Assembly (NCBI GenBank): GCA_009392915.1
Contig: CP045477.1
Location: 672,001 to 736,000, forward strand
Direction of reading: 5' to 3'
DNA: 64,000 bases
Source of the DNA: Candidatus Forterrea multitransposorum CG_2015-17_Forterrea_25_41
Lineage (GTDB): Archaea > Iainarchaeota > Iainarchaeia > Iainarchaeales > CSSED10-239
Below are positions 7,797 through 51,879 of the stretch, piece by piece. The notes beneath the pieces are model-generated. The model was not told the DNA's origin and searched no databases. It worked only from the letters and a program-made list of their open reading frames with translations. Each line of letters opens with the position of its first letter. Within the stretch, counting starts at the first letter, position 1. Made by a program: the position numbers and the translations under genes.

Positions 7797-7853
7797 TTAT
7801 TATATTTCTATTTGTACAGATAAAAGAGTAGATGAAAAGATATTTATATGTTT

Positions 7854-9609: not shown

Positions 9610-9654
9610 ATTTTAATCACATTTTTATAAAGTTTTATTTTTTTTAAAAAAGAA

Positions 9655-14988: not shown

Positions 14989-15010
14989 TTGTTTTTTTAA
15001 AAGAGAACAA

Positions 15011-15989: not shown

Positions 15990-16063
15990 AAATATAATAG
16001 AACCATTTTATTTAAAAAACAATTGTTTTTTTAAAAGAATAATCATTCTTTTAAAAGAATGAT

Positions 16064-25546: not shown

Positions 25547-26323
25547 ATGACTATATTTAAAAAAATAATAACAACTTATAATAATGAAGGATTAAAGAAA
25601 TTATTATTAAAAAGTAAAAATTATATTAATAGAAAATATTTTAAAAAAGATAAAAATATATTTCACAATATAATTACACTAATAAAAATAAAAAGATTTA
25701 TTAAAAATAATAAAAACCCAAATATTAAAAAAATTATTAATTTTTTATTTAATAATAACTTAACTATTAGACCAGCACAAATAAAATATGAACTTAAAGA
25801 ATTATTAGAATTATTAATTTTAAATAATCCAAAATATGTCTTGGAAATTGGCACATACAATGGGGGAACACTATTTACTTTTTCTCAAATTAGTAATAAA
25901 AAGTCAACAATTATTTCTTTAGATCTACCAAATGGAAAATATGGCGGTGGATACCCTAATTGGAAAAAAAAAATATACAAAGCATTTATTTTAAAAACAC
26001 AAAAAATACATTTAATTAGAAAAAACTCTCATCTTAAAGAAAGCTACTTAGAAGTTAAATCAATACTTAAAAACAAAAAACTAGACTTTCTATTTATAGA
26101 TGGTGATCACACATACGATGGAGTTAAAAAAGATTTTAAATTATATAGTACTTTTGTTAAAAAAGGAGGTATAATTGCATTACACGATATAGTTGTTCAC
26201 CCTCCTAAATTAAATTGTCATGTAAATGAATTTTGGAAAGAACTAAAAAATAAATACAAATATAAAGAGATAATAAAAAATAAAAATCAAGGATGGGGGG
26301 GAATTGGGATAATTTACAAATAA
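25547..26323 (+). CDS. Class I SAM-dependent methyltransferase (CmcI/TylF-like sugar O-methyltransferase family).
   Basis: Motif I 'VLEIGTYNGGT' and 'FLFIDGDHTYDGVKKDF' are typical of that family. Confidence 0.55.
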   Translation: MTIFKKIITTYNNEGLKKLLLKSKNYINRKYFKKDKNIFHNIITLIKIKRFIKNNKNPNIKKIINFLFNNNLTIRPAQIKYELKELLELLILNNPKYVLEIGTYNGGTLFTFSQISNKKSTIISLDLPNGKYGGGYPNWKKKIYKAFILKTQKIHLIRKNSHLKESYLEVKSILKNKKLDFLFIDGDHTYDGVKKDFKLYSTFVKKGGIIALHDIVVHPPKLNCHVNEFWKELKNKYKYKEIIKNKNQGWGGIGIIYK

Positions 26324-26330
26324 GATAAAT

Positions 26331-27134
26331 ATGAATACAAAAGTATCAATCTTAATTTGCACATATAATTGTGAAAAATACATAAAAAACACAATTCAAA
26401 CAATATTAGATCAAACTTACAAAAATTGGGAACTTTTAATATTAGATAATAATTCTAAAGATAGCACTAAAAATATACTTTCAAAATACAAAAAAAATAA
26501 AAAGATAAAATTATTTTTTTCAAAAAATAATAAAGGAGCATATTCTGGACTTAACTATCTAATTAAAAAAGCAAAAGGAAAATATATTGCAATCCAAGAT
26601 CATGATGACCTATGGCACCCTAATAAATTAAAAGTACAAGTTAAATTTTTAAACGAAAATAAAAAATATATAGGGTGTGGAACAAATCAAATTACTTATT
26701 ATGAAAAAGAAAAAAAAATTTATTTTGGGTCAGTTAAAAAAGATAATTTTTTTGCATGCCACACTACATTAATGTTTAGAAACAATAATTTTTATTACAA
26801 TCCTAATATTTCTTTTGAAACAGACCTATATTTTATGAAAAAAATTATTTGCAAAGATGAATTAAAAATATATAATATTAATAAATTTTATAGTGTACAT
26901 ATTATTAGAAAAGATCAAAATAACTTAACAATAAAAACAATTAAAGAAAATAGTTTAATAGAAATAATAAAAATAATAAAAATAAATAATAGATCTAATA
27001 TAAAATATTTTTTAAAAATAATATTTATAAAATATTTTTATAAAATTTACAAAATAATTGAAAATAAAAAAATAAAAAAAATAAAAAACAAAAATAAAAT
27101 TAACTATTTTAAAAAATATTTAAAAGTAGATTAA
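26331..27134 (+). CDS. Glycosyltransferase family 2.
   Basis: 'VSILICTYNCEKYIKNTIQTILDQTY...LLILDNNSKDST' and the 'QDHDD' DxD motif. Confidence 0.7.
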   Translation: MNTKVSILICTYNCEKYIKNTIQTILDQTYKNWELLILDNNSKDSTKNILSKYKKNKKIKLFFSKNNKGAYSGLNYLIKKAKGKYIAIQDHDDLWHPNKLKVQVKFLNENKKYIGCGTNQITYYEKEKKIYFGSVKKDNFFACHTTLMFRNNNFYYNPNISFETDLYFMKKIICKDELKIYNINKFYSVHIIRKDQNNLTIKTIKENSLIEIIKIIKINNRSNIKYFLKIIFIKYFYKIYKIIENKKIKKIKNKNKINYFKKYLKVD

Positions 27135-27135
27135 A

Positions 27136-28053
27136 ATGGATTTAATTAGCATAGTATTACCAGTATTTAATTCAGAAAAATTTATTTTTAAATCAATAAA
27201 AAGTATTCTTAATCAAACATACAAACATATTGAATTAATTATAATTAATGACGCATCTACAGACAATAGCGAAAAAATTATTTTAAAATTTAAAGATAAA
27301 AGAATAAAATATATTAAAAATAAATTTAATTTAGGAGAACAAAAAACTACTAATGTAGGTTTAAAACTATGTAAAGGAAAATATATATCTATAATGCACT
27401 CAGACGATATAGCTCATAAAAATAAAATAGAAGAACAAACAAACTATTTAAATAAAAATAAAAATATATTTTTAGTTGGCACAAGTTATAATATTATTGA
27501 TGAAAATGAAAAAATAATAAAAATAGTTAATAAAAAAATAACACCAAAAAAAATAAATAAAAAAATACTTAAAGGAAAAAATATAATCTGCCATCCTACA
27601 ATAATGTTTAGAAAAGAAAAAATAAATTACAGATCAAAAATATACTATTGCCCAGATTTAGATTTGTATTTAAGATTAATTAAAAAAAATAAAAAAATAG
27701 CTATTTTAAATAAAGTTTTATTAAACTACAGAGTACACTTTAATCAAATAAGTATTTCTAAAAAATATAAACAAAACTTATTTAAAAAAATAACTCTAGA
27801 AATTAACAATGGAGAAAGAAAATATAAATTATTTAATCCTCAAAAAATATTAAACATAAATGAAAAAAAATTAGATTACAAAGAACAGATTATATACCAC
27901 TATTTATATAAAAATCCTAAAAAAATTAGAGATAATTATATCAAATACATATATAAAGAAAAAAAAATTGACAAATATTTATTTTATTATTTATATTCTT
28001 ATTTAATTAACATTTACATTTTATTTAGAAACAATAAAAGAATATATTTTTAA
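27136..28053 (+). CDS. Glycosyltransferase family 2.
   Basis: 'ISIVLPVFNSEKFI...LNQTYKHIELIIINDASTDNS' and 'HSDD'. Confidence 0.7.
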   Translation: MDLISIVLPVFNSEKFIFKSIKSILNQTYKHIELIIINDASTDNSEKIILKFKDKRIKYIKNKFNLGEQKTTNVGLKLCKGKYISIMHSDDIAHKNKIEEQTNYLNKNKNIFLVGTSYNIIDENEKIIKIVNKKITPKKINKKILKGKNIICHPTIMFRKEKINYRSKIYYCPDLDLYLRLIKKNKKIAILNKVLLNYRVHFNQISISKKYKQNLFKKITLEINNGERKYKLFNPQKILNINEKKLDYKEQIIYHYLYKNPKKIRDNYIKYIYKEKKIDKYLFYYLYSYLINIYILFRNNKRIYF

Positions 28054-29208
28054 AATAGCAATATTAATTTTTGAAATATAATAATTTTTAGAATATTTCA
28101 TAATTTTTTTATATTCCCATTTTTTATTTAATCCATAATTAATTAAAAAAAACAATTTGTTAAAATTATAAGGATCATCTAATATAATTCCTATGTCTGG
28201 AAAAATAATTTCTTCCATTCCACCAGCACTTGAACCTAAAAAAGGACATCCACAAGTCAATGCCTCTAACATAACAGTAGGGTTTCCTTCAAAATAACTT
28301 GGCAAAACAAATAAATCAGAAGCACTCATCCAAATAGGTATTTCATTGTGAGATTTTGAACCAACTACTTTAATATATTTAGTTAAATTTAATTTAATTA
28401 TTTCTTGTTTAATTTTAAATTCATCTTTTCCAGAACCTATTAAATATAGAACAAAATCACCTCTTACTTTTGATAATTCATTAATAGCTTTTATTAAATT
28501 AATTTGATTCTTAATATCAACAATATAATTACCAACATGTAAAATAATTTTCTTGTTTAGAGGTAATTTTAATTTTTTCCTAGCAATTACTTGTGACGTA
28601 TTTTTAAAATAATTAGGAATTCCATTAGGAATTATTTTATATTTATCTTTAACGTCAACAATTGAATTTACTTTATTCATATTTTTTTTAGAAACAGTAA
28701 TAAAATAATCACAATTATTTAAAGTATAAATAAACTTACTTTTATTATTTTTATTTCTAAAAGGAAAATCATAAACATCAAATCCATGACCAGTAACAAT
28801 TAATTTAATACCATATTTCTCTTTTAATTTACTTGCAACATATCCAGAAGGATATGTGAAATGAGCATGCATTAAATCAAATTTCAAGTTATTTTTTTTA
28901 ATAACACTATCGACTGAATCAAATAAATTAAATGTTTTATAACTAATTTTATTTGGAAGTTTAAAATAAGTTGTATAATAAACTTCTATATTTTTATAAC
29001 AATAATTCTTATTATTAAGTCTATTTTTATAACCTTTAACAAACTTACTTAAAAAAATAGAAAAATAAGGTGTTGGTACAATTACATACACTTTTTTAAA
29101 ATATTTTGAAAGTTCATCAACCTGTGTTTTTACAAAAGTACAATCTATACTACCTTCTTTATTAGGATAACCATTAGAAATAATCAATAAGTTCTTATCT
29201 TTAAACAT
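28021..29208 (-). CDS. Glycosyltransferase family 4 (GT-B, GT1/GT4).
   Basis: C-terminal 'PSYFEGNPTVMLEALTCGCPFLGS' is the E-x7-E region of GT4. Confidence 0.7.
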   Translation of the reverse strand: MFKDKNLLIISNGYPNKEGSIDCTFVKTQVDELSKYFKKVYVIVPTPYFSIFLSKFVKGYKNRLNNKNYCYKNIEVYYTTYFKLPNKISYKTFNLFDSVDSVIKKNNLKFDLMHAHFTYPSGYVASKLKEKYGIKLIVTGHGFDVYDFPFRNKNNKSKFIYTLNNCDYFITVSKKNMNKVNSIVDVKDKYKIIPNGIPNYFKNTSQVIARKKLKLPLNKKIILHVGNYIVDIKNQINLIKAINELSKVRGDFVLYLIGSGKDEFKIKQEIIKLNLTKYIKVVGSKSHNEIPIWMSASDLFVLPSYFEGNPTVMLEALTCGCPFLGSSAGGMEEIIFPDIGIILDDPYNFNKLFFLINYGLNKKWEYKKIMKYSKNYYISKINIAILKIYSFIVSK

Positions 29209-30242
29209 TATTTTTTACTCCTTTTTAATGAATTAAATAGCAAATCCACAAATTTAGATATGTTTGTAGATTTTAACTTTTTAGCTTTATTTTTTTTAAC
29301 AAGCATAATATTTTTAACAGTTTTTAACTTTTTTAAATAACCTTTTTTTAATAAATATTTATCAACACCCCCTATTTTTAAAGCTAATATAGTGTATACC
29401 GGAGTGCCTAATGCACAAGCCTCTCTATTCATAGTGCCACCTGCGCTTATCACTAAATCAGATTGTTTAATTAAACTAGGAGCGTCAATAGCTTTAACAG
29501 GAATTATAAAATTATTATATTTATTAGATTTTATTAAATTAATTTGATCTACATCTCTCCCTAAATATACTACAACTACATTTTTTTTATTTGATAAATA
29601 ATTTATTAAATCTAAATAAATATTATTTTTAATCCCTTTATGATATAAAGATTTTTCAGCAGGAGGTCTAAAAACTACAATTATCTTTTTAGAATCTATA
29701 TTTAATTTTTTTAAAATTTTATTATCAAAATTATAATCAGAAAGATACATTTGCTCTTTAAGACCATCATATTTAATAATTTTTTTATCATTAACACCAA
29801 ATTTATATAAATCTTTTGAATTTATATATTTAGGACAAACTATTTTTGTTGCACATCTAAAATTAATATGATGGAATTGAGCATACTCATAATCAAAGAT
29901 ATCTATTATAGGTATTCTTGAAATCCAAGAAACGATACAAATATCAATAGAATTATGAGATAAAGATAAATGAAATTTATGTTTTATTGAAAAAAATAAT
30001 AATCGAATAGACCTTGTTATAAGGAACAATATTTTTTTAAATAAATTATTTCCTGCATATTTTCCAAATTTATAATACTTAATATTATATTGATCTAGTA
30101 AATCATAGGTCTGCGCAAAATCTCTTGCAGTAACTATAACTTTAAAGCCTCTTTTTTCTAAATTTTTTATAATAGGTCTAAAAAACAAAACGTGAGGTGA
30201 ATTTGTAACATCAATCCATATTTTTTTAACCATAATAATCAA
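29208..30242 (-). CDS. DUF354-family protein (predicted GT-B-like glycosyltransferase or epimerase-fold).
   Basis: N-terminal 'KIWIDVTNSPHVLFFRPIIKNLEKRGFKVIVTARDF' matches the DUF354 consensus. Confidence 0.55.
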   Translation of the reverse strand: MIIMVKKIWIDVTNSPHVLFFRPIIKNLEKRGFKVIVTARDFAQTYDLLDQYNIKYYKFGKYAGNNLFKKILFLITRSIRLLFFSIKHKFHLSLSHNSIDICIVSWISRIPIIDIFDYEYAQFHHINFRCATKIVCPKYINSKDLYKFGVNDKKIIKYDGLKEQMYLSDYNFDNKILKKLNIDSKKIIVVFRPPAEKSLYHKGIKNNIYLDLINYLSNKKNVVVVYLGRDVDQINLIKSNKYNNFIIPVKAIDAPSLIKQSDLVISAGGTMNREACALGTPVYTILALKIGGVDKYLLKKGYLKKLKTVKNIMLVKKNKAKKLKSTNISKFVDLLFNSLKRSKK

Positions 30243-31691
30243 TTATTTTTTAAAAGTAAATAATATTTCTTTAATTTCAGTAATAGAAAGTATTTTTGTA
30301 ACAAATAATAAAATTAAATAAATAAAACCACTAATTAATAATATAAATAATATATCTAAAGAATTATAAAAGAATCTAATTACATAAATATTTTTTAAAA
30401 AATAAACTGCAAAACACATTAAAATACTAGATAAAAATAATTTAATAAAATCTATTTTAAAACTAAAAAAGGTGATTTTTTTAGTATGAATAGATAAATA
30501 TATTAAATTAATAATTTCAGATATAACAGTTGTTATTGCAGCTCCGATTATTCCAAATAAAGGTATAAATATAAAATTTAAGAAAATATTAATTCCAGTT
30601 GATATTCCTCTTATTTTTAAAACAAATTTTTCTTTATTATGAGCCATTAAAAAAATAGTGAAAATTACTGAAAAAGACATAAGGAAGAAAAATAAAAGTA
30701 ATATAGAAAAAGAAGTGCTTGCTAGAATATACTCACTACCAAAAACTAATTGAATAATCTCTTTTGAAAGTAATATTCCACCTAAAAAAATTGGAAAAGA
30801 AATAATCATTGAAACTTTTAAAAATTTATTTAATATTGAAGATACTTGTTTTTTAAAAGAATACTTTGAAAATAAATTAAAAAATACAAAACTAAATAAA
30901 CTAATTATTGCAGTTAAAAAACTAATCAATGTAACACTTGAAGAATAAAGCCCTAATTGAAAATCATTTATAAAAAAAGAAATAAATAATTTATCAAAAT
31001 TAAAAAAAATTATTGTAAAAAGATTAGACAAAGCAAATGGCCAAGAATATTTTAACTTTTCAATAAAAAAAGAAATATTTAATTTTAAATTAAGTTTAAC
31101 ATATTTTTTAACAATAAAAAACAAATATAAAAAAACAATAAAGAAAGCAATTACTTGAGATAAAAATATACCTAATAGCCCTTGATTAAAATAAATAACA
31201 ATTATTGCTAAAACAGTATATAATAATTTAGATAATAATTCTTGATAAGCCTGATATTTAAAATTTTGAAGAGAAGATAATAAATTATAAATTGTATTAG
31301 AACTATAATGAAAAATTAAATAAAATAAACCTAAAAAAATCATTTCTTTAACAATAAATGGCTTATCTATAAACAAAGAAACAAAAATCATTACAAGAGA
31401 TACTAAAAATAACAAAAACATCTTTGGCAGAAAAAGATCATTAAAATATTTATCCTTAAGAGAAGGATTCTTTGAAACATCCCTAAATATCAAAGTGTTT
31501 ATCCCTAAATCACCAAAGATTGCAAAAAGTCCAATAAATGACAAAACAAAATTTAAATAACCATAATTTTCAACACCTAAATATCTAGGAATTAAAGTAA
31601 TAGTTACAATAGATAATAGATAAACTAAAAACTTAGAAATAGATAAATAACCAATATTTCTAATAACTCCTCTTTTTTCTTCTAACTCCAT
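30243..31691 (-). CDS. Polysaccharide/oligosaccharide flippase (MOP superfamily, Wzx-like).
   Basis: 482 aa and about 12-14 TM helices. Glycosylation-cluster context. Confidence 0.6.
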   Translation of the reverse strand: MELEEKRGVIRNIGYLSISKFLVYLLSIVTITLIPRYLGVENYGYLNFVLSFIGLFAIFGDLGINTLIFRDVSKNPSLKDKYFNDLFLPKMFLLFLVSLVMIFVSLFIDKPFIVKEMIFLGLFYLIFHYSSNTIYNLLSSLQNFKYQAYQELLSKLLYTVLAIIVIYFNQGLLGIFLSQVIAFFIVFLYLFFIVKKYVKLNLKLNISFFIEKLKYSWPFALSNLFTIIFFNFDKLFISFFINDFQLGLYSSSVTLISFLTAIISLFSFVFFNLFSKYSFKKQVSSILNKFLKVSMIISFPIFLGGILLSKEIIQLVFGSEYILASTSFSILLLFFFLMSFSVIFTIFLMAHNKEKFVLKIRGISTGINIFLNFIFIPLFGIIGAAITTVISEIINLIYLSIHTKKITFFSFKIDFIKLFLSSILMCFAVYFLKNIYVIRFFYNSLDILFILLISGFIYLILLFVTKILSITEIKEILFTFKK

Positions 31692-35929: not shown

Positions 35930-37051
35930 ATGGATATAATAAATAAAAACTTAGAAAGTTATTTTAGTCTTGCAAATCAATTAAAGGAAGCGTTTAATAA
36001 TAAAAAATATGCCTTTATTAAATCAGTTTATATTCATGGTTCTTTTGCAAGAGGAGAAATTACTCCTAAAGAAAGTGATATTAACTTAATGATTTTTACT
36101 AAGAAAAAAGAAATTTTAGAAAAAGAAATTGAAACTATCTATAATATTAAACAAAAAATTGAAAGTAATTATTCAATAAAAATAGAATTTAAAATAAATA
36201 ATATTGAGAAAAATAGTCTTAAAAACATTACAACAGATATGTTCTATCCTTATCTTTATGATTTTATATTAAATAGCTTTTATATCTACGGAGAAAGAAT
36301 AGAAGACAAATTATTAAAAATTTTAAAAAATAAAACCTATTTTGAATTTTCATTTGAAACTACAAGTGTTTTTTCAAAAATAAGAATTGATTTTTTAGAA
36401 AATTATTTTAAAGAAAATAAATATAGAATGTACCATAATCTTTACAAATATTCAAGACTTTTAAAACAATTAAAAGTAAATGAAGAAGATATAGAAAAAT
36501 TAGTTTTAAAAATAACAGATTATAAAAATATAGATAAAGAAGAAATATTAAAATACATACTTAAATTTGAAGAACTTCTTGAAAAAGCAGATCTTAAAGA
36601 AATATATGAAAATAATAAAAAATTAAAATTATTTTTAGGATATGCAAAAGGAAGTTTAATCTATAATACTAAAACTAAAAAACTATTAATCCTTAGAGAA
36701 GATAGAAACATCTGTTCTTTTTGGTCAAAATCAGAAAAACAAGTAAAAAATAAAATTACTTTAAAAGATATCAAAAAAGATATTAAAGATAATTGTGGAA
36801 TTGATAAAATAACAATTGTTAAAAACAAAATAGGGGAATGTCATAATTGGTATGAAAAAGAAGACAATAGCTTTAAGAAAATACACACAGAATACTATTA
36901 TGCAACCACAGATTCTCCTGAAATGCCAATAAAAGATAATTGTTATGCATGGATTAAATTAAATGAAATTCAAAAATATATTTCTTCTCCTTGTCTTGGA
37001 TATATTGCAAAAGCATTCTATGAAGATTATATTAAAAAATTAGAAAAATAA
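35930..37051 (+). CDS. Nucleotidyltransferase-domain protein (pol-beta superfamily N-terminus, second acidic residue replaced by Asn) with a 250-aa uncharacterised C-terminal region.
   Basis: 'VYIHGSFARGEITPKESDINLMIF' (hGS...D.N). Confidence 0.5.
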   Translation: MDIINKNLESYFSLANQLKEAFNNKKYAFIKSVYIHGSFARGEITPKESDINLMIFTKKKEILEKEIETIYNIKQKIESNYSIKIEFKINNIEKNSLKNITTDMFYPYLYDFILNSFYIYGERIEDKLLKILKNKTYFEFSFETTSVFSKIRIDFLENYFKENKYRMYHNLYKYSRLLKQLKVNEEDIEKLVLKITDYKNIDKEEILKYILKFEELLEKADLKEIYENNKKLKLFLGYAKGSLIYNTKTKKLLILREDRNICSFWSKSEKQVKNKITLKDIKKDIKDNCGIDKITIVKNKIGECHNWYEKEDNSFKKIHTEYYYATTDSPEMPIKDNCYAWIKLNEIQKYISSPCLGYIAKAFYEDYIKKLEK

Positions 37052-37437: not shown

Positions 37438-39750
37438 ATGAAGATAGGAAACTACACTGTTGGAGACCATGTAGTTACAACTGAAGGTAATAAGAAAAAA
37501 TTAGTTTTTGATTGTAGAAATTGTCCTTATAATACATCAATTGCAGAAGACCCTAGATGTAGGTTTCATGCAATGAAAGTTTTAGAAACTGTTGATGCTG
37601 ATGAAATAATCTTAGCTGAAGTTTATGAAAGAAACTATAATGAAGAACAAACTAAATATTTAAAAGAAATGGTAAACCTACTTTTAGAATTTGAAAATAG
37701 AGCTGTCTGGGTATCACAACATCTTGGAATAAAGGATATTGATTGTGATGAATGTTATCCTGAAAGACATAATAATATTATTAAATTTGCAAGAGAACTT
37801 TTAGCATATGATCCTATAGCCTCATATATTAGTCTTTTAAAAGAAATAGAAAATACAAAAAACAGAGGAAATGAAAGAAAAGGACAACCATGTGAACCAT
37901 GTTTTGTTGCAAATGTTAAACATTTATCAAAATTAAAAGAAATGTTTGAAAAAACAGATTTTATAAGAAAAATAAAACCTTTATTATTAAAAATAAAAGA
38001 TTTATCTGAAGTTACAGACATCTATAGAACAATTTTTGAAGTTGAAATTAAACCTGCATTTATTGGTTCAAAATTAACTTTTAAAGACATGGATACTTTA
38101 GAACTTCTAGATGAATATCAAGTATTAAACACAACAGTTCAAATTTTTAAACATCCAGAAAAAGTTGAAAACATTTATTTAATTAATCCTCCTGAATATA
38201 CCTTATCACCAGATCATTATTTTGTTTTAACTAAAACAAAAGAAACTGTTGCAAACTATAAACCAGGAAAAGTAACTTTAACAACTGGAGAGTCTACAAG
38301 AAAATATTTCCAAAGAATATATCAATCAACAATTATTGATATTGCAAAAAAATATAATATTGAACTTTCACCTGATGATGTTTATTCACTTTCAGAAATT
38401 GTTACAAGATACACTATTGGATATGGGGTTTTAGAATTATTATTATCAGATAAACAAGTTACAGATGTTTATCTAGATTCACCATTAGGTGCAAAACCAA
38501 TATATTTAGTGCATTCAAAATATGGACAATGTCAAACAAATGTACATTATCCAGAAAAAGATGCAGAAAGCTTTGTTGGAAAAATAAGAGCAATGTCTGG
38601 AAGACCATTTGATGATGCACACCCTGTCTTAGACTTTGATATGCCAGACTTAAATACCAGAATTGCAGTTATTGGAAGACCTCTTGCAACAGATGGTATA
38701 GCTTTTGCTTTTAGGTTACATAAAGATACTCCATGGACTTTACCACAACTTATAAATGTTAAATCCTTAAATCCTTTAGCTGCTGGAATGTTAAGTTTCT
38801 TTATTGATAATAACTCAACTCTTTTAGTTGCAGGATCTCGTGGTGCAGGAAAAACTTCACTTATGACAGCTTTAATGCTTGAAATTTTACAAAATGCAAG
38901 AATTATTGTGCAAGAAGACACTTTAGAGCTTCCTATAACTTATATGAAAGATATTGGTTTTAATGCTCAAAGATTAAAAACAAGATCTGCAATTGGAGGA
39001 TCAGGAGATCAATCTAATGCAGAAGTAAAACCTGAAGATGCTTTAAGAACAGCCTTAAGATTAGGTGATTCTGCTTTAATTGTTGGAGAAGTAAGATCAG
39101 TTGAAGCAAAAGTACTGTATGAAGCCATGAGAGTTGGTGCTGCAGGGAACGTTGTTATGGGAACTATTCACGCAGACTCAGCTTATGCTGTATGGGATAG
39201 AGTAGTTAATGATTTAGGAGTGCCTACCACTTCATTTAAAGCAACAGACATTATTGTTGTTGCAAAGCCAATTAGGTTTAAAGGTTCTCTTAAAAGTTAT
39301 AGAAGAGTTGTACAGATAACAGAAGTTAGAAAACATTGGAATGATGATCCTGAAGCTGAAGGTGGAATTTTAAATTTAATGGAATATGATGCTTCTAAAG
39401 ATACTTTAGTTTTAAACGAAGATGCTTTAAAAGATTCTGAAATCTTTTCAAAAATATCTAAACTTACAGGTATGACAATTGAAGAGATTTGGGATAATAT
39501 TACTTTAAGATCAAAAGAAAAGAAATTCCAAGTAGAATTTGCAAATGAAAAAGGAGTAATTGAACTTTTGGAAGCTGAACATACTGTTTTTGTGCATAAT
39601 AAACTACTTATTACAAAAGAAGACTATTTAGAAGAACATGGAAAAACAGATTATGATCAAGTCTTTGAGCTTTGGAAGAAATGGTATATAGAAAAGTTTG
39701 CTCCAAGGATGATGAAGAGAATAATTGAGAATAGAAAAAGTGAAGAATAG
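37438..39750 (+). CDS. Type II/IV secretion-system ATPase of the archaeal FlaI/PilB/TadA family, with an unusually long Cys-containing N-terminal extension.
   Basis: Walker A 'LLVAGSRGAGKTSLMTAL', 'IIVQEDTLEL', Asp box and 'VGEVRSVEAKVLYEAMRVGAAGNVVMGTIHADSA' (His box). N-terminus has 'CRNCPYN...CRFH' and 'CDECYP...CEPC'. Confidence 0.7.
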   Translation: MKIGNYTVGDHVVTTEGNKKKLVFDCRNCPYNTSIAEDPRCRFHAMKVLETVDADEIILAEVYERNYNEEQTKYLKEMVNLLLEFENRAVWVSQHLGIKDIDCDECYPERHNNIIKFARELLAYDPIASYISLLKEIENTKNRGNERKGQPCEPCFVANVKHLSKLKEMFEKTDFIRKIKPLLLKIKDLSEVTDIYRTIFEVEIKPAFIGSKLTFKDMDTLELLDEYQVLNTTVQIFKHPEKVENIYLINPPEYTLSPDHYFVLTKTKETVANYKPGKVTLTTGESTRKYFQRIYQSTIIDIAKKYNIELSPDDVYSLSEIVTRYTIGYGVLELLLSDKQVTDVYLDSPLGAKPIYLVHSKYGQCQTNVHYPEKDAESFVGKIRAMSGRPFDDAHPVLDFDMPDLNTRIAVIGRPLATDGIAFAFRLHKDTPWTLPQLINVKSLNPLAAGMLSFFIDNNSTLLVAGSRGAGKTSLMTALMLEILQNARIIVQEDTLELPITYMKDIGFNAQRLKTRSAIGGSGDQSNAEVKPEDALRTALRLGDSALIVGEVRSVEAKVLYEAMRVGAAGNVVMGTIHADSAYAVWDRVVNDLGVPTTSFKATDIIVVAKPIRFKGSLKSYRRVVQITEVRKHWNDDPEAEGGILNLMEYDASKDTLVLNEDALKDSEIFSKISKLTGMTIEEIWDNITLRSKEKKFQVEFANEKGVIELLEAEHTVFVHNKLLITKEDYLEEHGKTDYDQVFELWKKWYIEKFAPRMMKRIIENRKSEE

Positions 39751-40109: not shown

Positions 40110-41456
40110 TTATAAAAAATATCTTGGAACCTCTAACAAACTTAAAAAGATACAAGCAGGAATAACTAACCTATTTTCTACAAAAACATCTCCAGGGGGC
40201 AAAACTGATTTAGATAATATTAAATAGTCTTTAACAAAATTAACATTATTTGGTTTTATTAAAGTATTTCTATATTTTACTTCTACTGCTTTTTTAAAAA
40301 CAATAAAATCAATTTCTTTTTTATCAACATTAAAATAAGATAAATCTAAATTATATAGATTATGTAAATGACTTGCAACAATGTTTTCAACTATAACACC
40401 TAATTTTTGTTCATTAAATAACAATTCTTTACTTTGAGCAAAATAATCTATATTTTTATAAAAATTTGTAATTGCATGTATTATAAAAGGATCTTTTACA
40501 TAAAATTTTTTAAGAATAGAAGATTGATTTTCTTTAACTTCAAAAACAACTAATAGCTCTGACAAAGTATTTAAGTAACTTTTAATAACATCTTGAGAAT
40601 AACCTGTTTTTTGTTGAATTGTAGAATATTTAATTTGGTTTGATAAAGAATCTATTAAAACTCTTAAAATTGCAATAGATTTTTGTTTATCTATTTTTTC
40701 AAATATTTTTTCTACAATATCTTCATAATATTTTTCAGATATATGATTTTTTTCAAAAAAAGAATTTATTGTTTCTGGAAAACCACCAGTTAATAAATAA
40801 TTATAGAAATATTTATTAATTTCTTCAAAATAATTTTCTAATAATTTATATTTCTCATAAATTAAAGTATTATCTTCACTTAGATTTATATGGTTATTTA
40901 ATATTACATCATGTAGTTTTAGGTTTTCTTTTTTTAATATAGTTAAAATATATTGTCTAAAAGTTAATGGGCCCATAATATTTTTTTTTTCAGACCTTCC
41001 AATTAGATATTGCCTACAAGCATCTATTGCTCTTGGATCAGAACCAGTAACAAATACACAAACATCTTTTAATAAATTTAAATCTTTTAAAGATTTTAAA
41101 AATAAACAACCTTCTTTTAAAGACTGAATTTCATCTAATAAAATTATTTTTTTATTATTTATTTTAATATCATGTTCTATAGTTTTTATTAATTCACTAG
41201 ATCTTATATTTAAAAGAGTGTCAAAATTAATGTAAGTAGAAGTATTTGGGTTATCTTGAGCAATTTTTTTTAAAAAAATAGTTTTTCCAACTCTTCTAGG
41301 GCCCTTTATTAAGTATATTTTGTTAGGAGCTATCTCTAATTGCTTTCTTTCGATGGAATATCTATTATTTTTTATTTTGGTAATCTCTAAGTCTTCTTTT
41401 CCTTGCCACCAAGGATTTTGTAAAATTATGTTTTTCCAATCAAGCATATATATCAT
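40110..41456 (-). CDS. AAA+ ATPase of the archaeal ATPase (AAA_14/DUF4143-like, COG1373-type) family.
   Basis: Walker A 'IYLIKGPRRVGKTIFL' and Walker B 'IILLDEIQ'. 448 aa with a C-terminal DUF4143-like region. Confidence 0.6.
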   Translation of the reverse strand: MIYMLDWKNIILQNPWWQGKEDLEITKIKNNRYSIERKQLEIAPNKIYLIKGPRRVGKTIFLKKIAQDNPNTSTYINFDTLLNIRSSELIKTIEHDIKINNKKIILLDEIQSLKEGCLFLKSLKDLNLLKDVCVFVTGSDPRAIDACRQYLIGRSEKKNIMGPLTFRQYILTILKKENLKLHDVILNNHINLSEDNTLIYEKYKLLENYFEEINKYFYNYLLTGGFPETINSFFEKNHISEKYYEDIVEKIFEKIDKQKSIAILRVLIDSLSNQIKYSTIQQKTGYSQDVIKSYLNTLSELLVVFEVKENQSSILKKFYVKDPFIIHAITNFYKNIDYFAQSKELLFNEQKLGVIVENIVASHLHNLYNLDLSYFNVDKKEIDFIVFKKAVEVKYRNTLIKPNNVNFVKDYLILSKSVLPPGDVFVENRLVIPACIFLSLLEVPRYFL

Positions 41457-43346: not shown

Positions 43347-45860
43347 CTAGTCTAACATTTCGATAGCGTTGATTAATTCTTTTGCAGCGTCAGCTGTGTC
43401 TGCAGCAGAGAATCCAGCAACAACGATGTTACCGTTTTCAACAGAACCAACAACAAATTGACCAGCTTCTGTTAAGAATTCATCAGTAATTCCACTAGCT
43501 AAAGAATTAACTAAGTGTCCACCAACGATTATCTTAGCACCAGCACTTGTCATTGTTTCGTTGTCAAGGTATACAATTCTTTGTGTACTTGCATTCCAGT
43601 TAGCAGGTGTCATAGCTGTCATTTCTTCTCCACCAGTTACTGTTGAAGTGATTAATTTAGCTGAGATCATACCGTCTTCTGTTTCAACAACTGTACCAGG
43701 AGTAGTTAAAACAAGTTCTCCACCGTTAAGTGTAGTTTCTGAAGAAACTCCTCCACCTATGAAGATTTGTCCTTTTAATTGTTTCTCAGGAAGAGTAAAC
43801 ATTGGATACCCGTCTTCTATTGTTGCGTAAGCACCGTATGTTGTATAACCGAAAACTAAATCTGAATCGTTACCTTTATCTGATAAATCAAATGTGTCTG
43901 ACCCATTAGCACCGTATACTTGCTTATAAGTACCTAAAAAGTCATTATCATTTAAGTTAACCATATCTCCTGTGTATGCATCCATATACATTGTAATAGA
44001 ATCTGATCCATTAGTTACAGTTATTGCAGCAATAGATTCAAAATCATCATTTGCATAATTATCTGTAAATGTTGCACTATCTACTCTATCACCAATAAAT
44101 GAAGCATCAGATATAAATCCAGCAGCAGTATTAGTTGAATCTATTCCAGAAACATCCCATGTATAACCTGTGTCTCCAATTCCTAAATCAACTGTTTGAT
44201 TATTTTTCAAACCCATTGCAACTGTTTTAATTGTATTATAAACTGCATCTGCAGAAGCTGTTTTTGCAACACCAGGAGCTACCATCACAGTATACTCTAC
44301 ATCTCTAGCATCGTTGTTATATAAAGGAATTCTTAAATTTGTATATAATCCTGTATTAACATCTTGAACACTACCAGATTTAGAATAATAATCAGGAGTA
44401 GTTGAAACCCATGTTGGAGTTGATCCATCTGCACCAGTTAAATACTTACCATCTGAATCTTCTAATTGAACTGTGAAATTAACATCATTAGCAGCAGCAG
44501 TATAGAACTTGAAATACAATTCTTTACCATCTAATAATAATGAAGTGTATGAATCTCTAGCAGTTGTTGCTTCGTCGTAATCATACATGAAAACTTCGTG
44601 ATCTTTTCTATCAGCATCTGTAAAGTAGATGTAATTATCTTGAGCATAGAATTCTGCTGATTTTTCTTCAGTTAAACCTAAGAAATCAATTGAACCAAAT
44701 CCTAAAGGAAGCTCTACTGAATCTCCAACTCTTAATGAGTCATCATTAGTAAATCTTAATGATGTATCATCTGTAGATAAAGTGATTTTTGTTAAATAAC
44801 CAGAAGCACCAGGTGCTGAAGGAGTAAAATCAACTTTCCATAATTTATCATCTTTATTAGGGAAATCAGTTATTTTTGACCCATTCTTTAACTCTAATTT
44901 TCCTGAAGATCCAGTTATTACTTTAACAGTAGTTGCGTAAACAGTATCAACATCGATATTAGATTCTAAGTAGCTATCAAATATCTTTGTATCACCAGTT
45001 CTGAATACATCAGTTGCAACAACACTACCTGTTGAATCTTTTAAGTTCATTTCAGCTTGGTATCTGTTTGTTGTGTCACCAGTATCTAAAATATTTACAA
45101 CTTCAATTGTGTAATCGTCAGCAGTAAATGATGCACCAGGAGCATATGTTTGAGTAGCTAAGTTTTGAACTAATTTTAATGTTGTACCATCGAATGAATC
45201 AACAGTGTAGTTCTTACCCATTAAATTAAATTTAAGTCTTGGGCTTGCACCAGCATCTGTGTAATCTCCTTTAATACCTTCATCAAAATCAACAGAGTAT
45301 GATATAGCACCTTTGTCGATTGAAGCAACTAAATCTTTGACATCTTTATCTTTATTAAAGTAAACATTTGCTGTTACTGACAACTCATCAGAAATTGTTA
45401 AAGTACTTGCACCAGCGTGATCTGAATCAGCAGATGTATCTGTCTTATATAACATAGAATAATCTGTTTCATCAATTACTTTTGCAGTATTAGTCATATC
45501 ATTTAATGTGTAATTATCTGATAAGTAACCGTCACCTGATATTGTTGATGTACTTGAAGAACCTACTTCGATAGTTACGTCTTGTAAAGAAGCTCCGCCA
45601 ACTGTACCTGTAGTTGTGTATGCTTTCTTTCCGATAGCAGCAGCTATGTTACCAGCCCATACTACATCAACTGGTTGTGCCATAGAACCAACTACAACAC
45701 TAACACTTGGAACACCATTATTATACATTGTATCTTTAGTGATGTTCATAGAAAAGTTATCTGCACCAACGTTAGCAGCAACAACTGATCCAGCTAAAAG
45801 AGCTGAAACACCTAAAGCAGCTACACCAGCAACAACTTTTTTCATGTTTATATTTTTCAT
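43347..45860 (-). CDS. Secreted S-layer-like surface protein.
   Basis: Signal peptide 'MKKVVAGVAALGVSALLAGSVVAANVGA'. 837 aa, T/S/D/G/V-rich with beta-rich low-complexity composition. GC content and codon usage are visibly higher than the neighbours. Confidence 0.5.
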   Translation of the reverse strand: MKNINMKKVVAGVAALGVSALLAGSVVAANVGADNFSMNITKDTMYNNGVPSVSVVVGSMAQPVDVVWAGNIAAAIGKKAYTTTGTVGGASLQDVTIEVGSSSTSTISGDGYLSDNYTLNDMTNTAKVIDETDYSMLYKTDTSADSDHAGASTLTISDELSVTANVYFNKDKDVKDLVASIDKGAISYSVDFDEGIKGDYTDAGASPRLKFNLMGKNYTVDSFDGTTLKLVQNLATQTYAPGASFTADDYTIEVVNILDTGDTTNRYQAEMNLKDSTGSVVATDVFRTGDTKIFDSYLESNIDVDTVYATTVKVITGSSGKLELKNGSKITDFPNKDDKLWKVDFTPSAPGASGYLTKITLSTDDTSLRFTNDDSLRVGDSVELPLGFGSIDFLGLTEEKSAEFYAQDNYIYFTDADRKDHEVFMYDYDEATTARDSYTSLLLDGKELYFKFYTAAANDVNFTVQLEDSDGKYLTGADGSTPTWVSTTPDYYSKSGSVQDVNTGLYTNLRIPLYNNDARDVEYTVMVAPGVAKTASADAVYNTIKTVAMGLKNNQTVDLGIGDTGYTWDVSGIDSTNTAAGFISDASFIGDRVDSATFTDNYANDDFESIAAITVTNGSDSITMYMDAYTGDMVNLNDNDFLGTYKQVYGANGSDTFDLSDKGNDSDLVFGYTTYGAYATIEDGYPMFTLPEKQLKGQIFIGGGVSSETTLNGGELVLTTPGTVVETEDGMISAKLITSTVTGGEEMTAMTPANWNASTQRIVYLDNETMTSAGAKIIVGGHLVNSLASGITDEFLTEAGQFVVGSVENGNIVVAGFSAADTADAAKELINAIEMLD

Positions 45861-47539: not shown

Positions 47540-49927
47540 TTAGTAAGGCAAAGCAGCATTGTTATTTGCAAGAAGACATAAACAAACTTTTAAATCTACT
47601 TGAGAAGTAAACTGAGTAACTCCATCGTTTGTAGTTAAAGTTAAAGTTCTTGTAAAACCTGCAGGGAAATTACCTAAATAAGTTAAACTTCTATTTGGTT
47701 CTATTAAAGAAGGTTGTGAAACTTTAAATAATTTAGAAGAAATATTTGTTTTAGGTAAAGGTTTAGTTGTTATTGATAAATTATTACTCTTTACAGAAGT
47801 GTAAGGAGGAGACGCTAAACCTAAGTCATATGGACTTGCAGAAAAATTACAATCGTTTGAAATTATTTGAGAACCATACTTCCAAACACAACTTACATTA
47901 TTATAATTATTATAAACAGCAACAGTAAAATCTAAATCTTCTTTGTAAGGATAACTTCTGTTTTCTTCAGGACTTAAAACTTCATGATAATGTGCTTCTG
48001 GCATTGTAACATTAATTGTTACAATATCTGTGTCTTGTCTTGAAAAATCATCTGTTACTATTAATTTAATTTCATATTCTGAAGTTTCTAAATTTAATTG
48101 ACCAGGAGTTTTATTTAAGTTACATTGGTTTGAAAAATTAGTATAAGAACTATTACCTTGTTTTTTGTGTTGCCATTGACAACTAGAATCGCCAATTTCA
48201 TTTTCTATAGAAGAAGAAAATGAAATAACATCATCAATCTCATAAGAAGAATTGTTTTCTGGAGAAGTGATTTCTGCTTCAAGGTCTAAAGGTTCTGTAA
48301 CTGTTAAATAAACATCAACAGTTGTTCCACTTTCTGATAAACCTTCAAGACGGATACCACTATCAACTAAACCATTGTAGGTTGTTGAAGTGGTGTCTCT
48401 TATTACTTGACAATTTGGATCGATTCTTGAAACATCATCAAATTTACCTTCTACAATTTCTGGGTTACAACCACCAAAATCATCCGGAAGTTCGGTTGTA
48501 TATAGATCACTATGAGTTCTAGAAGGGCTAGTATAAGCATCTAATATATTTTGTTCGAAAATAATACCAGGATGACTTATTGTATCATCATAATAATCAT
48601 CATCTTCATCGTACATGATACTGTTAAAAGCTATATCCCCAGCATAACGATCATCAATATAAGCTTCATCAACATGTAAAACATCTATTCCACCATTTGC
48701 ATTAAAAACTGGTGTAGTTACACCAAATAAATATCTATCTAAAGAAGTATCAGAAATATATCTATTAGTGATTAAAAAATATTCTCGATCACCCATGGTA
48801 TCAGGGTTGTTTAAAAGATAAGCATCATTACTAGTATCATAAGGACCTAAACTATAAATGTCTGCTTGAGAAGCAGAATTTATAACAACAGGATTAAGCC
48901 AGCCAAAAAAGAATTTTGACCAAGAATCAAAATTAACTGGTTTTTTATGATCTTGACCAACATCAATATCAAAAACCATTACAGTGTGACCTCCAAGACC
49001 AGAGCCTAACTGAATACCAGTATAACTAAGTTCATAAAGATCTGGAAGACCTAAAACATGAGCAAACTCATGAACAGCAGAATCAATACTTAATCTACAG
49101 TCTGTTGGATAATTAAAATAATTTATCCAGTTTTGACAAATAGATTGAAGATGACGAGAAGGAACTACAGCAACATTACCATAAAGCATACCTTGTATTT
49201 CTAAAGTTGTTTCTTTATAAATTCTTGCTTGAGAAATAATATTATTACCCATCTCTTGAGCAGGAAGACCAGCATGAACTAAAACAACACCATCAAGTCT
49301 ACCATCACCATCAGAATCATATTGTGTGAAATCAATTGAATTACTTCCAGTTCCAAAAAGATTTAATGTTTCAACAATAAGTTCATGAACATTATTGTTG
49401 TTATAATAATAACTATAATTGTGAGAAACAGTTCTCCAATCATAAACATCATATGAAATATCTAAAGAATCATAAGAATTGTGTTTATAAAATTCACTTA
49501 CACTTATACCTTCACCAGATAAATAATTATTTGAATTATAAACATCATCATAAACTGATGCTGTTAAACCTGCATCAGGAGAAAGATCAGGAAATTTAAC
49601 TAATAAAACAGGAATACTATAATTACCGGTTGTTGGAGAAGTTCCTATTTTATTATCTAAGGTTGTTGTTTCAAAATCTCTTGTAGAAACATTAGAAGAA
49701 TAATTTAAACCTAAACTTGCAGGAGTTTCTCCTGGAGGAAGACAAATACTTCCTGAACAATAACTTGAAAGAATTGGTGGAATTTCAAAGACAGGAGGTT
49801 TAGATTTTGTAATTGGTTTTATAACTGCAATATTTTCTGCACTTGAAGAAGCTTCTTTAGAATAAACTAAAGGAAGAAGTAAAAGTGAGAAAATTATTAT
49901 AACTACTAAAAATATTCTTTTATCCAT
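47540..49927 (-). CDS. Secreted zinc metalloprotease, M6 (immune inhibitor A-like) family.
   Basis: Signal peptide 'IFLVVIIIFSLLLLPLVYS'. 'AVHEFAHVLGLPDLYE' matches the M6 HExxHxxGxxD motif. 795 aa with C-terminal beta domains. Confidence 0.65.
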   Translation of the reverse strand: MDKRIFLVVIIIFSLLLLPLVYSKEASSSAENIAVIKPITKSKPPVFEIPPILSSYCSGSICLPPGETPASLGLNYSSNVSTRDFETTTLDNKIGTSPTTGNYSIPVLLVKFPDLSPDAGLTASVYDDVYNSNNYLSGEGISVSEFYKHNSYDSLDISYDVYDWRTVSHNYSYYYNNNNVHELIVETLNLFGTGSNSIDFTQYDSDGDGRLDGVVLVHAGLPAQEMGNNIISQARIYKETTLEIQGMLYGNVAVVPSRHLQSICQNWINYFNYPTDCRLSIDSAVHEFAHVLGLPDLYELSYTGIQLGSGLGGHTVMVFDIDVGQDHKKPVNFDSWSKFFFGWLNPVVINSASQADIYSLGPYDTSNDAYLLNNPDTMGDREYFLITNRYISDTSLDRYLFGVTTPVFNANGGIDVLHVDEAYIDDRYAGDIAFNSIMYDEDDDYYDDTISHPGIIFEQNILDAYTSPSRTHSDLYTTELPDDFGGCNPEIVEGKFDDVSRIDPNCQVIRDTTSTTYNGLVDSGIRLEGLSESGTTVDVYLTVTEPLDLEAEITSPENNSSYEIDDVISFSSSIENEIGDSSCQWQHKKQGNSSYTNFSNQCNLNKTPGQLNLETSEYEIKLIVTDDFSRQDTDIVTINVTMPEAHYHEVLSPEENRSYPYKEDLDFTVAVYNNYNNVSCVWKYGSQIISNDCNFSASPYDLGLASPPYTSVKSNNLSITTKPLPKTNISSKLFKVSQPSLIEPNRSLTYLGNFPAGFTRTLTLTTNDGVTQFTSQVDLKVCLCLLANNNAALPY

Positions 49928-49985: not shown

Positions 49986-51023
49986 TTAATTTAAACCAAG
50001 AGAAAAACACACTTCTCCATTTGAGTTTGTAACACAAACTGGTTCTAAATCATAGTATTCAGATAAATCTGGATGACTTACATAAAATGTAGCATCTCCT
50101 TCTGAAGAACTATCTGATGCTGAAAATCTATTAAGACAAAGGTTTACAGAACCATTAGAATTTGTTTGTGCACTACAAAGTGCATATTCTGGAGCATCTT
50201 GAACAGGAAGTGTAAACTCTAACATCTTTTCATCAGAATTACCATTTTGATCTATTCCTGTAAAATAAAAATTAAAAACTCCTTCTTGATTACAAGAAAT
50301 ATTACTTGCAAGTTCTTCTTCTGGATTAAGACTTGAGAAAGTATGTATGAATAATCCTTCTGCTGTTGCAGGAACTTGAGTTCCATCGTAACTACATGCA
50401 TTACTTAAAACAATTTCATTAATTGCAGAGTTATATGTTTTTACAACTAAACTAACATCAACTAATTGTTCTTCAGTTGAATTAAAATCTATACTTAAAG
50501 TTGTAGGATAAGGTTGATTTACATTTGCACTTGCTGTTGGATGTGGACTTAAATTTAAAATAAATGTATTAGGAAGAGAATTTCCATATTCACAAGAAGA
50601 ATAATCTATTTCACAAGAAACACAATTATAAACATCATTAATTAAAAAATAACCAAATGGAAGATTATCTATACAACCTTCAGAATCTGGACCTAAAACA
50701 ATAGAACCATTCACCCATTCACATTCCTCGCCAGTATTTAAAACATTATCTCCACAAACACCACCTGGAATTGGGTCAGGATCATCATTACCTACTCCTC
50801 CAGAACCACCAGCATTACCATCCCCACCGCCTACAGAACCTAAGCCATCACCATCTCCTGATGGAATATAGTTAGATAGATCTACTTCTGGTATATCTTG
50901 AGTATTATCTATTTTTTTATTAATGTTAGATAAATAAAATGTTGCAAAAACAACACTACCTAAAACTATAACACCTATAATAATTATTGCTTCTAAAGAA
51001 ACCTGTCCTTTATCTCTAATCAT
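49986..51023 (-). CDS. Pilin-like protein with a class III signal peptide, a Gly-rich linker and a Cys-rich globular domain.
   Basis: 'MIRDKGQVSLEAIIIIGVIVLGSVVF' (prepilin-type). Then 'GDGDGLGSVGGGDGNAGGSGGVGND' followed by more than 12 Cys. Confidence 0.55.
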   Translation of the reverse strand: MIRDKGQVSLEAIIIIGVIVLGSVVFATFYLSNINKKIDNTQDIPEVDLSNYIPSGDGDGLGSVGGGDGNAGGSGGVGNDDPDPIPGGVCGDNVLNTGEECEWVNGSIVLGPDSEGCIDNLPFGYFLINDVYNCVSCEIDYSSCEYGNSLPNTFILNLSPHPTASANVNQPYPTTLSIDFNSTEEQLVDVSLVVKTYNSAINEIVLSNACSYDGTQVPATAEGLFIHTFSSLNPEEELASNISCNQEGVFNFYFTGIDQNGNSDEKMLEFTLPVQDAPEYALCSAQTNSNGSVNLCLNRFSASDSSSEGDATFYVSHPDLSEYYDLEPVCVTNSNGEVCFSLGLN

Positions 51024-51228: not shown

Positions 51229-51879
51229 ATGACAAAAAAAGAAAACAATTTAATGTATATTAAAATTCTTTTAGGTGCAATCTTAGCAGTTTTAGTTTTA
51301 TTATTAGTATTGAATCTATCAAACAATAATAAAACAGCAGATGCTTTTTTAAAAGAAACAACAAGTAAAACAGATAACCAAGCAAATCATTTTTTAGGAA
51401 ATGAAGATGCACCTTTAGTAATGTATGAATATTCTTCTTTTACATGTCCTTTTTGTAAAAGATATCAAATAGATGATCAAACTTTTGAAACTATTAAAAA
51501 AGAATATATAGATACAGGAAAAATTAAATATGTTTATCAACACTTTGTAAGAAACGAAATAGATATTAAAGCTGCAAATGCTGCTGAATGTGCAGGAGAA
51601 CAAGATATGTTCTTTGAATATAAAAAGAAACTTTATGAAAATCAAACAGATTTACCAAAAGAAGAATTTTCAAAGTATGCACAAGAACTTGATTTAGATG
51701 TTACAGCTTTTGAAAGTTGTCTTGCAGAAAACAAATATGTAAACAAAATAACACAAGATAAACAAGATGGTGTTAATAAAGGAATTAGTGGAACACCAGG
51801 ATTTATTGTTGGTAACCAAAGAATATCTGGTGCTCAAGACTATCAAGTCTTTAAAGCAGCAATAGATGAACAACTATGA
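51229..51879 (+). CDS. DsbA-like thioredoxin-fold thiol:disulfide oxidoreductase (secreted or membrane-anchored).
   Basis: N-terminal TM, then 'YSSFTCPFCKRY' (CxxC) in a thioredoxin-fold context, and a 'GTPGFIVG' cis-Pro region. Confidence 0.7.
   Translation: MTKKENNLMYIKILLGAILAVLVLLLVLNLSNNNKTADAFLKETTSKTDNQANHFLGNEDAPLVMYEYSSFTCPFCKRYQIDDQTFETIKKEYIDTGKIKYVYQHFVRNEIDIKAANAAECAGEQDMFFEYKKKLYENQTDLPKEEFSKYAQELDLDVTAFESCLAENKYVNKITQDKQDGVNKGISGTPGFIVGNQRISGAQDYQVFKAAIDEQL

Follow-up and report, generated by a model that had tools for sequence, protein, structure and literature searches.

DPANN archaea depend on cell contact, and their surface machinery is poorly annotated. Two kinds of archaeal type IV filament (TFF) machinery offer the closest described counterparts to the locus analyzed here. 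In 'system 1', found in methanogens and DPANN, the platform is split in two genes and the system has its own peptidase (bioRxiv 10.64898/2026.04.22.720090). The ATPases of 'system 2' carry extended N-terminal and sometimes C-terminal regions and go together with just one platform gene, numerous pilins and large proteins resembling adhesins; the extra ATPase domains have been proposed as interfaces for subsystem-specific partners (bioRxiv 10.64898/2026.04.22.720090). Two type IV pilus systems have been reported in one DPANN genome (Makarova et al. 2016; Mia14 genome paper). In this work we analyze a 64-kb stretch of contig CP045477.1 (hereafter the window), which encodes a 770-aa secretion-superfamily ATPase (37438..39750, + strand) and four proteins to which prepilin-type signals or a related N-terminal anchor had been ascribed. 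An initial annotation had combined these genes into one candidate attachment apparatus, taking the pilin domain to be novel and the ATPase to be atypical. Our results indicate instead, with a probability of about 0.75, that the window holds dispersed parts of two separate conventional archaeal TFF systems in an Iainarchaeota archaeon. The analysis was computational: it establishes homologies and domain architectures, fold predictions, gene order in relatives and sequence conservation, and from these we infer signal-peptide processing, pilus incorporation, adhesion and the role of the N-terminal extension of the ATPase.

The window has a GC content of about 25% and contains 53 open reading frames (ORFs) of at least 100 aa. 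Residues 1-300 of the ATPase match a contig of 'Candidatus ainarchaeum sp. STF1_257' (L007, Iainarchaeota) at 100%, and a JGI contig (L090) is 99.98% identical to the window across 12.4 kb. The organism can therefore be placed in the Iainarchaeota, the former Diapherotrites, a DPANN phylum, and the earlier guess of a DPANN archaeon was right. The flagged genes do not form a cluster: they are scattered between 11.5 and 62.9 kb among unrelated housekeeping genes, with topoisomerase VI, MCM, RPA, translation factors and others lying between them. The housekeeping complement comprises topoisomerase VI subunits A and B, MCM, RPA, aIF1A, aIF2-beta, RIO kinase, RtcB and pyruvate:ferredoxin oxidoreductase. 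No T2SSF/FlaJ/TadC platform gene was found among the 53 ORFs, nor by hidden Markov model (HMM) and tblastn searches of the window with the platform genes of relatives, and no A24 prepilin peptidase is present among these ORFs, in line with what had been stated before.

Three of the window proteins share an N-terminal domain well beyond chance, as had been proposed. The 424-aa protein (11538..12812, −) and the 1734-aa protein (57654..62858, −) match at 50% identity along 255 aa (E 2e-67); the 165-aa protein (54616..55113, −; orthologue cluster P0122) is 29% identical to the 424-aa protein (E 2e-16). Class III-type N-termini, each followed by a hydrophobic helix, are found in the 424-aa protein (KNKG↓QASLETLIL, the arrow marking the predicted cleavage site), the 1734-aa protein (KG↓QGNLETLIL) and a further protein of 345 aa (RDKG↓QVSLEAIII; 49986..51023, −). 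The 165-aa protein starts with K-K-Q, has no Gly at −1 and lacks the class III signature, so that canonical prepilin-type signals stand for three of the four proteins, the fourth being non-canonical.

The shared domain is poorly visible to family databases. The 424-aa protein scores 23.2 bits against Pfam PF04021, under the cutoff of 23.7, and the 1734-, 345- and 165-aa proteins have no match to this family. A profile search with the shared region nevertheless recovers 54 clusters, nearly all of them free-standing proteins of 155-200 aa, most with a precomputed PF04021 match. The AF2-predicted structure of the pilin module (predicted local distance difference test score, pLDDT, 83.1) consists of a helix at residues 22-63 and strands at 71-185, and the predicted head, which has two conserved Cys, structurally matches FN3 domains as a beta-sandwich. 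By sequence this head has no match in Pfam, including the fn3 families, or in NCBIfam, and a profile search against the PDB yields only matches with E of at least 0.47; the head family itself is thus unannotated in Pfam, NCBIfam and the PDB at the sequence level.

Synteny in relatives assigns this domain to a machine. Three long-flanked low-GC contigs (L004, L005 and L006) hold free-standing pilins with the shared domain inside an operon that runs, in order, RFC, T2SSE (610-667 aa), T2SSF, T2SSF, a small class III protein, one or more pilins, Peptidase_A24 (Arc_PepC) and four small ORFs. Judged by its gene complement, this operon matches the published 'system 1' (Epd-like) machinery. Because the homologues of the shared domain are free-standing pilins in a complete pilus operon, the domain can be understood as the usual body of a type IV pilin in archaea, a helix plus a sandwich, and its description as novel does not hold: the sequence is uncatalogued, yet it is the globular head of ordinary class III pilins of about 170 aa.

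In the window this head appears in other settings. The 424- and 1734-aa proteins are, on the evidence of their architecture, modular pilins or adhesins in which a large C-terminal part has been fused to a pilin module. In the 424-aa protein the class III signal, the hydrophobic alpha-1 helix and the FN3-like sandwich with its two conserved Cys are encoded at 12243..12812 (−), and a 234-aa C-terminal module at 11538..12242 (−) has no Pfam match at E ≤1. A LamG-like nature of this C-terminal module was considered and rejected, since BLASTP against the LamG neighbour protein in L089 finds no similarity and Pfam finds none either. The 1734-aa giant, identified by its similarity to the 424-aa protein and by its Pfam domains, is laid out as a pilin module (residues 1-182; 62313..62858), 11 CHB_HEX_C_1/Fn3_assoc repeats, two Ig_7 domains and one Gly_rich_2 domain. 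Its gene contains three tandem 750-bp repeats at about 59250..61500, recovered by a repeat search, as their period lies beyond the Tandem Repeats Finder limit of 500; its GC content is 0.35-0.36 against about 0.25 for the window, and its Ig_7 domains are annotated as 'CHU_C associated'. The gene may be of foreign origin and have undergone recent internal duplication. The window's pilin-type genes are not encoded with an ATPase, a platform or a peptidase, whereas their free-standing homologues in the three operon-bearing contigs are.

The size of these fusions could point to another function for the class III signals, namely that the proteins are not filament subunits and that signal and helix only anchor and display large surface proteins in the membrane or S-layer, in the manner of the bindosome-type class III substrate-binding proteins of Sulfolobus. 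Both the 1734-aa and the 424-aa protein far exceed typical pilin size, the 345-aa protein has a signal but no pilin head, and a widespread occurrence of class III signals on proteins other than pilins, which 'functionalise' TFF machineries, has been reported (bioRxiv 10.64898/2026.04.22.720090). The fusions, however, retain the whole pilin head and not the signal peptide alone, and this head is 40-45% identical to the first pilins of the system 1 operons, which argues for filament compatibility; moreover, modular pilins that polymerise are known in Streptococcus sanguinis (PMC8179133). We therefore regard simple anchoring as unlikely, although it is the most probable of the alternatives.

Some further features of these genes may be recorded. 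Contig L090 differs from the window's 424-aa gene at only 4 positions, all within 7 bp (12369..12375; gene positions 438-444; L090:6438-6444); the change resembles a micro-inversion and creates a stop that splits the gene into calls of 147 and 166 aa, and it could represent strain variation, phase-type variation or an assembly artefact. The 165-aa gene adjoins an IS5-family transposase (55275..56237, +; NF033579, 195 bits). In the 345-aa protein, as read from its translation, the class III N-terminus is followed by a linker rich in Gly and Asp and then by a C-terminal region rich in Cys; the shared pilin domain is absent, and the protein matches no Pfam or NCBIfam family.

The 770-aa ATPase belongs to a different machine. 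Pfam, PDB and motif evidence identify it as a T2SSE/VirB11-type ATPase of the archaeal TFF 'system 2' kind. It matches PF00437 (T2SSE) with 62.7 bits against a cutoff of 24.9, the best stretch being the catalytic P-loop core (residues 414-610; 38677..39267, +), and its closest PDB structure is A. fulgidus GspE (AfGspE; 2oap, E 2e-30). Four boxes are intact and align with the corresponding AfGspE boxes: Walker A (GSRGAGKT, 466), the Asp box (IIVQEDTLE, 489), Walker B (LIVGEVRSVE, 547) and the His box (TIHA, 576). More than 118 full-length homologues exist at 54-89% identity, with a mean pairwise identity in the core of 74-88% in clade comparisons; two of them, P0119 and P0120 (1260-1290 aa), contain inteins. 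An identity as the archaellum ATPase FlaI/ArlI was ruled out, since the protein scores 157.4 bits against the NCBIfam FlaI equivalog NF058587, under its cutoff of 550, and archaellum genes (ArlJ, archaellins and others) are absent from the window and from the related loci examined.

The ATPase had been called atypical for a Cys-containing N-terminal extension of 400 aa. That figure follows from the Pfam match, which begins at residue 414, but solved homologues align far before this point: residue ~298 corresponds to residue ~101 of AfGspE and residue 324 to FlaI 122, so the true extension measures about 200 aa. The extension and its cysteines are real, its length is half of that claimed, and the surplus over AfGspE amounts to ~200 aa at the N-terminus and ~35 aa at the C-terminus. 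The family-specific part (residues 1-205; 37438..38052, +) is laid out as a small beta/alpha knuckle (residues 1-68) followed by a five-helix bundle (69-199), and has no significant sequence match among PDB chains (best E 0.24, to Fur). Within the knuckle, the CxxC...CxxH motif (C26, C29, C41 and H44; 37513..37569, +) is kept in 95-99% of 118 homologues, whereas the other cysteines of the extension (C103, C106, C152 and C155) are kept in just 25-64%. The CxxC...C part also occurs in Altiarchaeota and Methanolobus homologues and is missing from several others. From this pattern of conserved residues, the Cys/His knuckle is a putative metal-binding element.

The extension is not peculiar to this genome. 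A degenerate-pattern scan of species representatives finds it in at least 179 species-level genomes, the named ones mostly Iainarchaeota/Diapherotrites, with exceptions labelled Micrarchaeota, Forterrea, Thaumarchaeota, Chloroflexota/Chloroflexi and Falkowbacteria; some of these off-phylum labels probably reflect mis-binning. An exhaustive profile search with the extension yields 253 clusters at 50% identity, with distant named carriers in Altiarchaeota, Micrarchaeota, an unclassified euryarchaeon and the cultured methanogen Methanolobus zinderi, and alignment reveals the same ATPase architecture throughout these distant members. With an extension this common the ATPase can hardly be termed atypical. 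The initial annotation had itself allowed that a known pilin domain and a widespread ATPase extension would reduce its proposal to ordinary archaeal pili, and this is largely what we find.

Gene neighbourhoods link this ATPase family to a platform of its own. ORFs were called and clustered in related loci, 60 of which have enough downstream DNA to judge linkage. In 39 of these 60, a platform gene lies directly 3' of the ATPase gene on the same strand, with a median gap of 13 bp. The platform in these loci is a polytopic protein of ~778 aa (Pfam T2SSF, 2.7e-6). The more distant L087, L088 and M. zinderi also have a member of this platform family, of 630-687 aa, directly after the ATPase (HMM E 4e-66, 3e-77 and 3e-91). 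In L024 the platform is followed in turn by 6-7 small proteins, mostly with a K/R-G-Q class III-type N-terminus lacking the E5 signature, which on these N-termini represent a pilin class different from that of the window. In composition, the module of the 770-aa ATPase matches the published description of 'system 2': the extended N- and C-termini are present in the window's protein, and adjacent platform and pilin genes are present in the family at large, although absent from the window and its clade. The 770-aa ATPase shows just 29% identity to its counterpart in the system 1 operon and has a platform module of its own, and it follows that the window's ATPase and pilin-type proteins belong to two systems. 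The notion of a single incomplete or non-canonical apparatus is therefore not upheld, as the operon of the pilin domain has its own ATPase and the 770-aa ATPase falls in a second module. What survives of the proposed surface-appendage set is the presence, in a DPANN archaeon, of type IV pilus-related surface proteins and of a secretion-family ATPase, not their membership in one joint system.

Other genes recur at these loci. In L024, a membrane protein of the exosortase/archaeosortase family (TIGR04178; 42.6 bits, cutoff 23) is encoded on the opposite strand just ahead of the ATPase (9333-9914, −). Homologues occur in about 45 related loci (for instance L003:7199-7870), so placed relative to the system 2 ATPase in most Iainarchaeota; none is present in the window. 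Such a conserved sortase-pilus linkage does not figure in the published account of system 2. At L024 alone, a 413-aa ORF (14768-16009, +) with C-terminal CxxC...CxxC motifs separates the platform gene from the pilins; by eye it resembles a TnpB/OrfB-type transposon protein.

The separation of ATPase and platform in the window is a property of its clade. In a neighbour-joining tree rooted on distant members, linkage is ancestral; it has been lost in the window's clade, where it is missing from every locus with enough flanking DNA, and a second time, independently, in a subclade comprising L003 and its relatives. Loci of the window's clade keep the gene order MCM, RPA, ATPase, variable island and S-layer gene, and in the second uncoupled subclade the ATPase has different neighbours again. 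The constancy of the MCM-RPA-ATPase order, together with the inteins of P0119 and P0120 and the high sequence conservation across the phylum, could be taken to mean that the ATPase serves a housekeeping function unrelated to pili, for example in translocating DNA or protein. We consider such a role extremely doubtful: outside the window's clade the neighbours are the TadC-like platform, pilins and the archaeosortase-family protein, not replication genes, the second uncoupled subclade does not share the replication context, and fold and motifs are those of pilus assembly ATPases.

Decay of the ATPase after uncoupling was also examined and rejected, because all motifs are intact in the uncoupled clade and the N-terminal extension is not relaxed relative to the core, the ratio of extension to core conservation being that of coupled lineages. 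Conservation comparisons place the ATPase under purifying selection. Since it is intact in the window's clade, the ATPase most likely remains functional together with a platform whose gene lies at another site, and a platform elsewhere in these ~1-Mb genomes is the simplest reading. A search for the TadC-like partner was uninformative in this respect: among the best 120 matches listed (≥49% identity) all belong to other clades, and none lies on a known close-clade contig.

The same observations can be read as a change of partner. The ATPase and the window's pilin-like proteins would then constitute one reduced, non-canonical attachment apparatus, in which the orphan ATPase acts in trans on system 1 as a second or retraction motor. 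The ATPase is uncoupled in every judgeable locus of the window's clade and yet fully conserved, N-terminal extension included; the helical part of this extension (residues 69-205) is the region most diverged between uncoupled and coupled clades (32% identity against 74% in the core), which could reflect a new partner; and Makarova 2016 has proposed that different sets of pilins can be served by ATPase-TadC pairs, with major pilins fitting most of these pairs. Set against this, the ATPase and the pilin-type genes are unlinked both in the window and in relatives, system 1 operons already encode their own ATPase, cross-complementation between systems is limited and has been ascribed to mismatched extra domains (bioRxiv 10.64898/2026.04.22.720090), and separated genes alone do not prove the loss of a partner. 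A trans-acting motor thus appears quite improbable. Its fullest form, in which the platform and pilins of system 2 have truly been lost in two Iainarchaeota clades, the conserved ATPase acts on the system 1 pilus as a second (e.g. retraction) motor and the giant modular pilins form host-attachment tips, is in our view very improbable.

Several points weigh against our preferred interpretation of two dispersed conventional systems. The assignments to 'system 1' and 'system 2' are matches to published descriptions and not results of the authors' MacSyFinder models, and the taxonomic relation of the system 1 contigs to the window is not established. In the ~1-Mb genome of a close relative no member of the pilin domain appears among the matches listed, in a search whose word prefilter may miss members. 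Throughout the loci of the window's clade, the 10 kb on either side of the ATPase contain neither a platform nor a prepilin peptidase gene, and because the window lacks both as well, either machine is unproven in this genome. The 165-aa protein has no canonical cleavage site, and 1734 aa would make a very large subunit for incorporation into a filament.

If two systems are nonetheless at work, a coherent mechanism can be proposed. A prepilin peptidase encoded elsewhere would cleave the 424- and 1734-aa proteins after K-G, and the alpha-1 helix and FN3-like head would then let the pilin module enter a pilus, or its tip, built by the system 1 ATPase and its split platform; the fused C-terminal modules would thereby be displayed as adhesins. 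The 770-aa ATPase would be a hexameric motor driving subunit extraction through a TadC-like platform, with the N-terminal knuckle and helical bundle most likely docking it to its own platform or to accessory proteins. Ancestrally, this module comprises the ATPase together with a single large platform of the TadC-like kind and several pilins; in the window's clade the ATPase gene has become separated from the rest.

The remaining surface-related genes of the window were all confirmed by family searches, as the initial annotation had proposed. They comprise an S-layer protein (43347..45860), an M6 metalloprotease (47540..49927), a DsbA-like thioredoxin (51229..51879) and a glycosylation block (25547..31691). 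The variable island between the ATPase and the S-layer gene (window 40110..41456, −; L089:12572-19872) carries AAA_14/DUF4143 ATPases, one in the window and three in L089, and also an AbiEii toxin and a YhcG-like nuclease, all of them defence or mobile-type genes. In the close relative L014, a 453-aa T2SSE ATPase (6596-7957, −) and a thymidylate-kinase-like gene are inserted between MCM and RPA; this short ATPase is 33-35% identical to the system 1 ATPases. Among the housekeeping genes, the thiamine pyrophosphate (TPP)-binding subunit of pyruvate:ferredoxin oxidoreductase (3763..5796, +) carries an intein (Intein_splicing and LAGLIDADG_3, residues ~149-513), and a 702-aa protein (12880..14988, +) fuses a glutamine amidotransferase/asparagine synthase to a diphthamide synthase (Diphthami_syn_2), a fusion also present in L090. 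Two Pol-beta-type minimal nucleotidyltransferases (MNTs; 35930..37051, +, and 15420..15989, −) lie amid housekeeping genes; an MNT-HEPN family conserved in DPANN has been reported from housekeeping-type contexts (Makarova et al. 2019, PMC6393860).

No current concept is changed by these results, which for the most part remove an apparent oddity, and their use lies in the annotation of DPANN genomes. They provide a concrete assignment of an unannotated FN3-like pilin head family to Epd-like 'system 1' pili, put forward two pilin-adhesin fusions of this genome as candidates for attachment, and place a phylum-wide ATPase of 760-770 aa, along with a TadC-like platform family that lacks annotation, in a 'system 2' module that methanogens also possess. 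That two lineages keep the ATPase apart from its platform is a point of some interest. Were the orphan motor to act on a system 1 pilus after all, archaea would have their own version of an extension/retraction motor pair, one that arose when an assembly ATPase was orphaned.

Set beside the closest known systems, the ATPase resembles system 2 (Makarova et al. 2016, clade 2; bioRxiv 10.64898/2026.04.22.720090) in having all catalytic boxes, extended termini and relatives with a single platform, class III pilins and adhesin-like proteins. It departs from that description in that platform and pilins are not adjacent to it in the window and that an archaeosortase-family gene lies divergently upstream in most Iainarchaeota. 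With FlaI/ArlI (PDB 4II7) it shares the superfamily and a two-domain core, residues 324-658 aligning to FlaI 122-438, but it scores 157 bits against the NCBIfam cutoff of 550, has no archaellum genes nearby and possesses additional N- and C-terminal regions; unlike AfGspE (2OAP, 511 aa), it has a knuckle and helical bundle of ~200 aa.

The pilin-type proteins, in turn, are closest to the Epd pilus of Methanococcus maripaludis and to archaeal 'system 1', with which they share class III signals of the form Q-x-S-x-E-x-x-x-L (PF04021/DUF361) and, in related contigs, an operon that also encodes an ATPase, a pair of platform proteins and a dedicated A24 peptidase bearing an Arc_PepC tail. Their FN3-like two-Cys head family, in contrast, falls outside Pfam and NCBIfam, and the window has it only in fused form or behind a variant N-terminus, at a distance from any machinery genes. 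In design, the fusions recall the modular pilins of Streptococcus sanguinis (PilB with a vWA module, PilC with a lectin module; PMC8179133, PMC9934059), in which a large functional module likewise comes after the pilin part and gives the pilus adhesive properties. Unlike these, they are archaeal, have a beta-sandwich head and are candidates for polymerisation, one fusion carrying ~1550 aa of CHB_HEX_C, Ig and Gly-rich repeats and being far larger than its bacterial counterparts.

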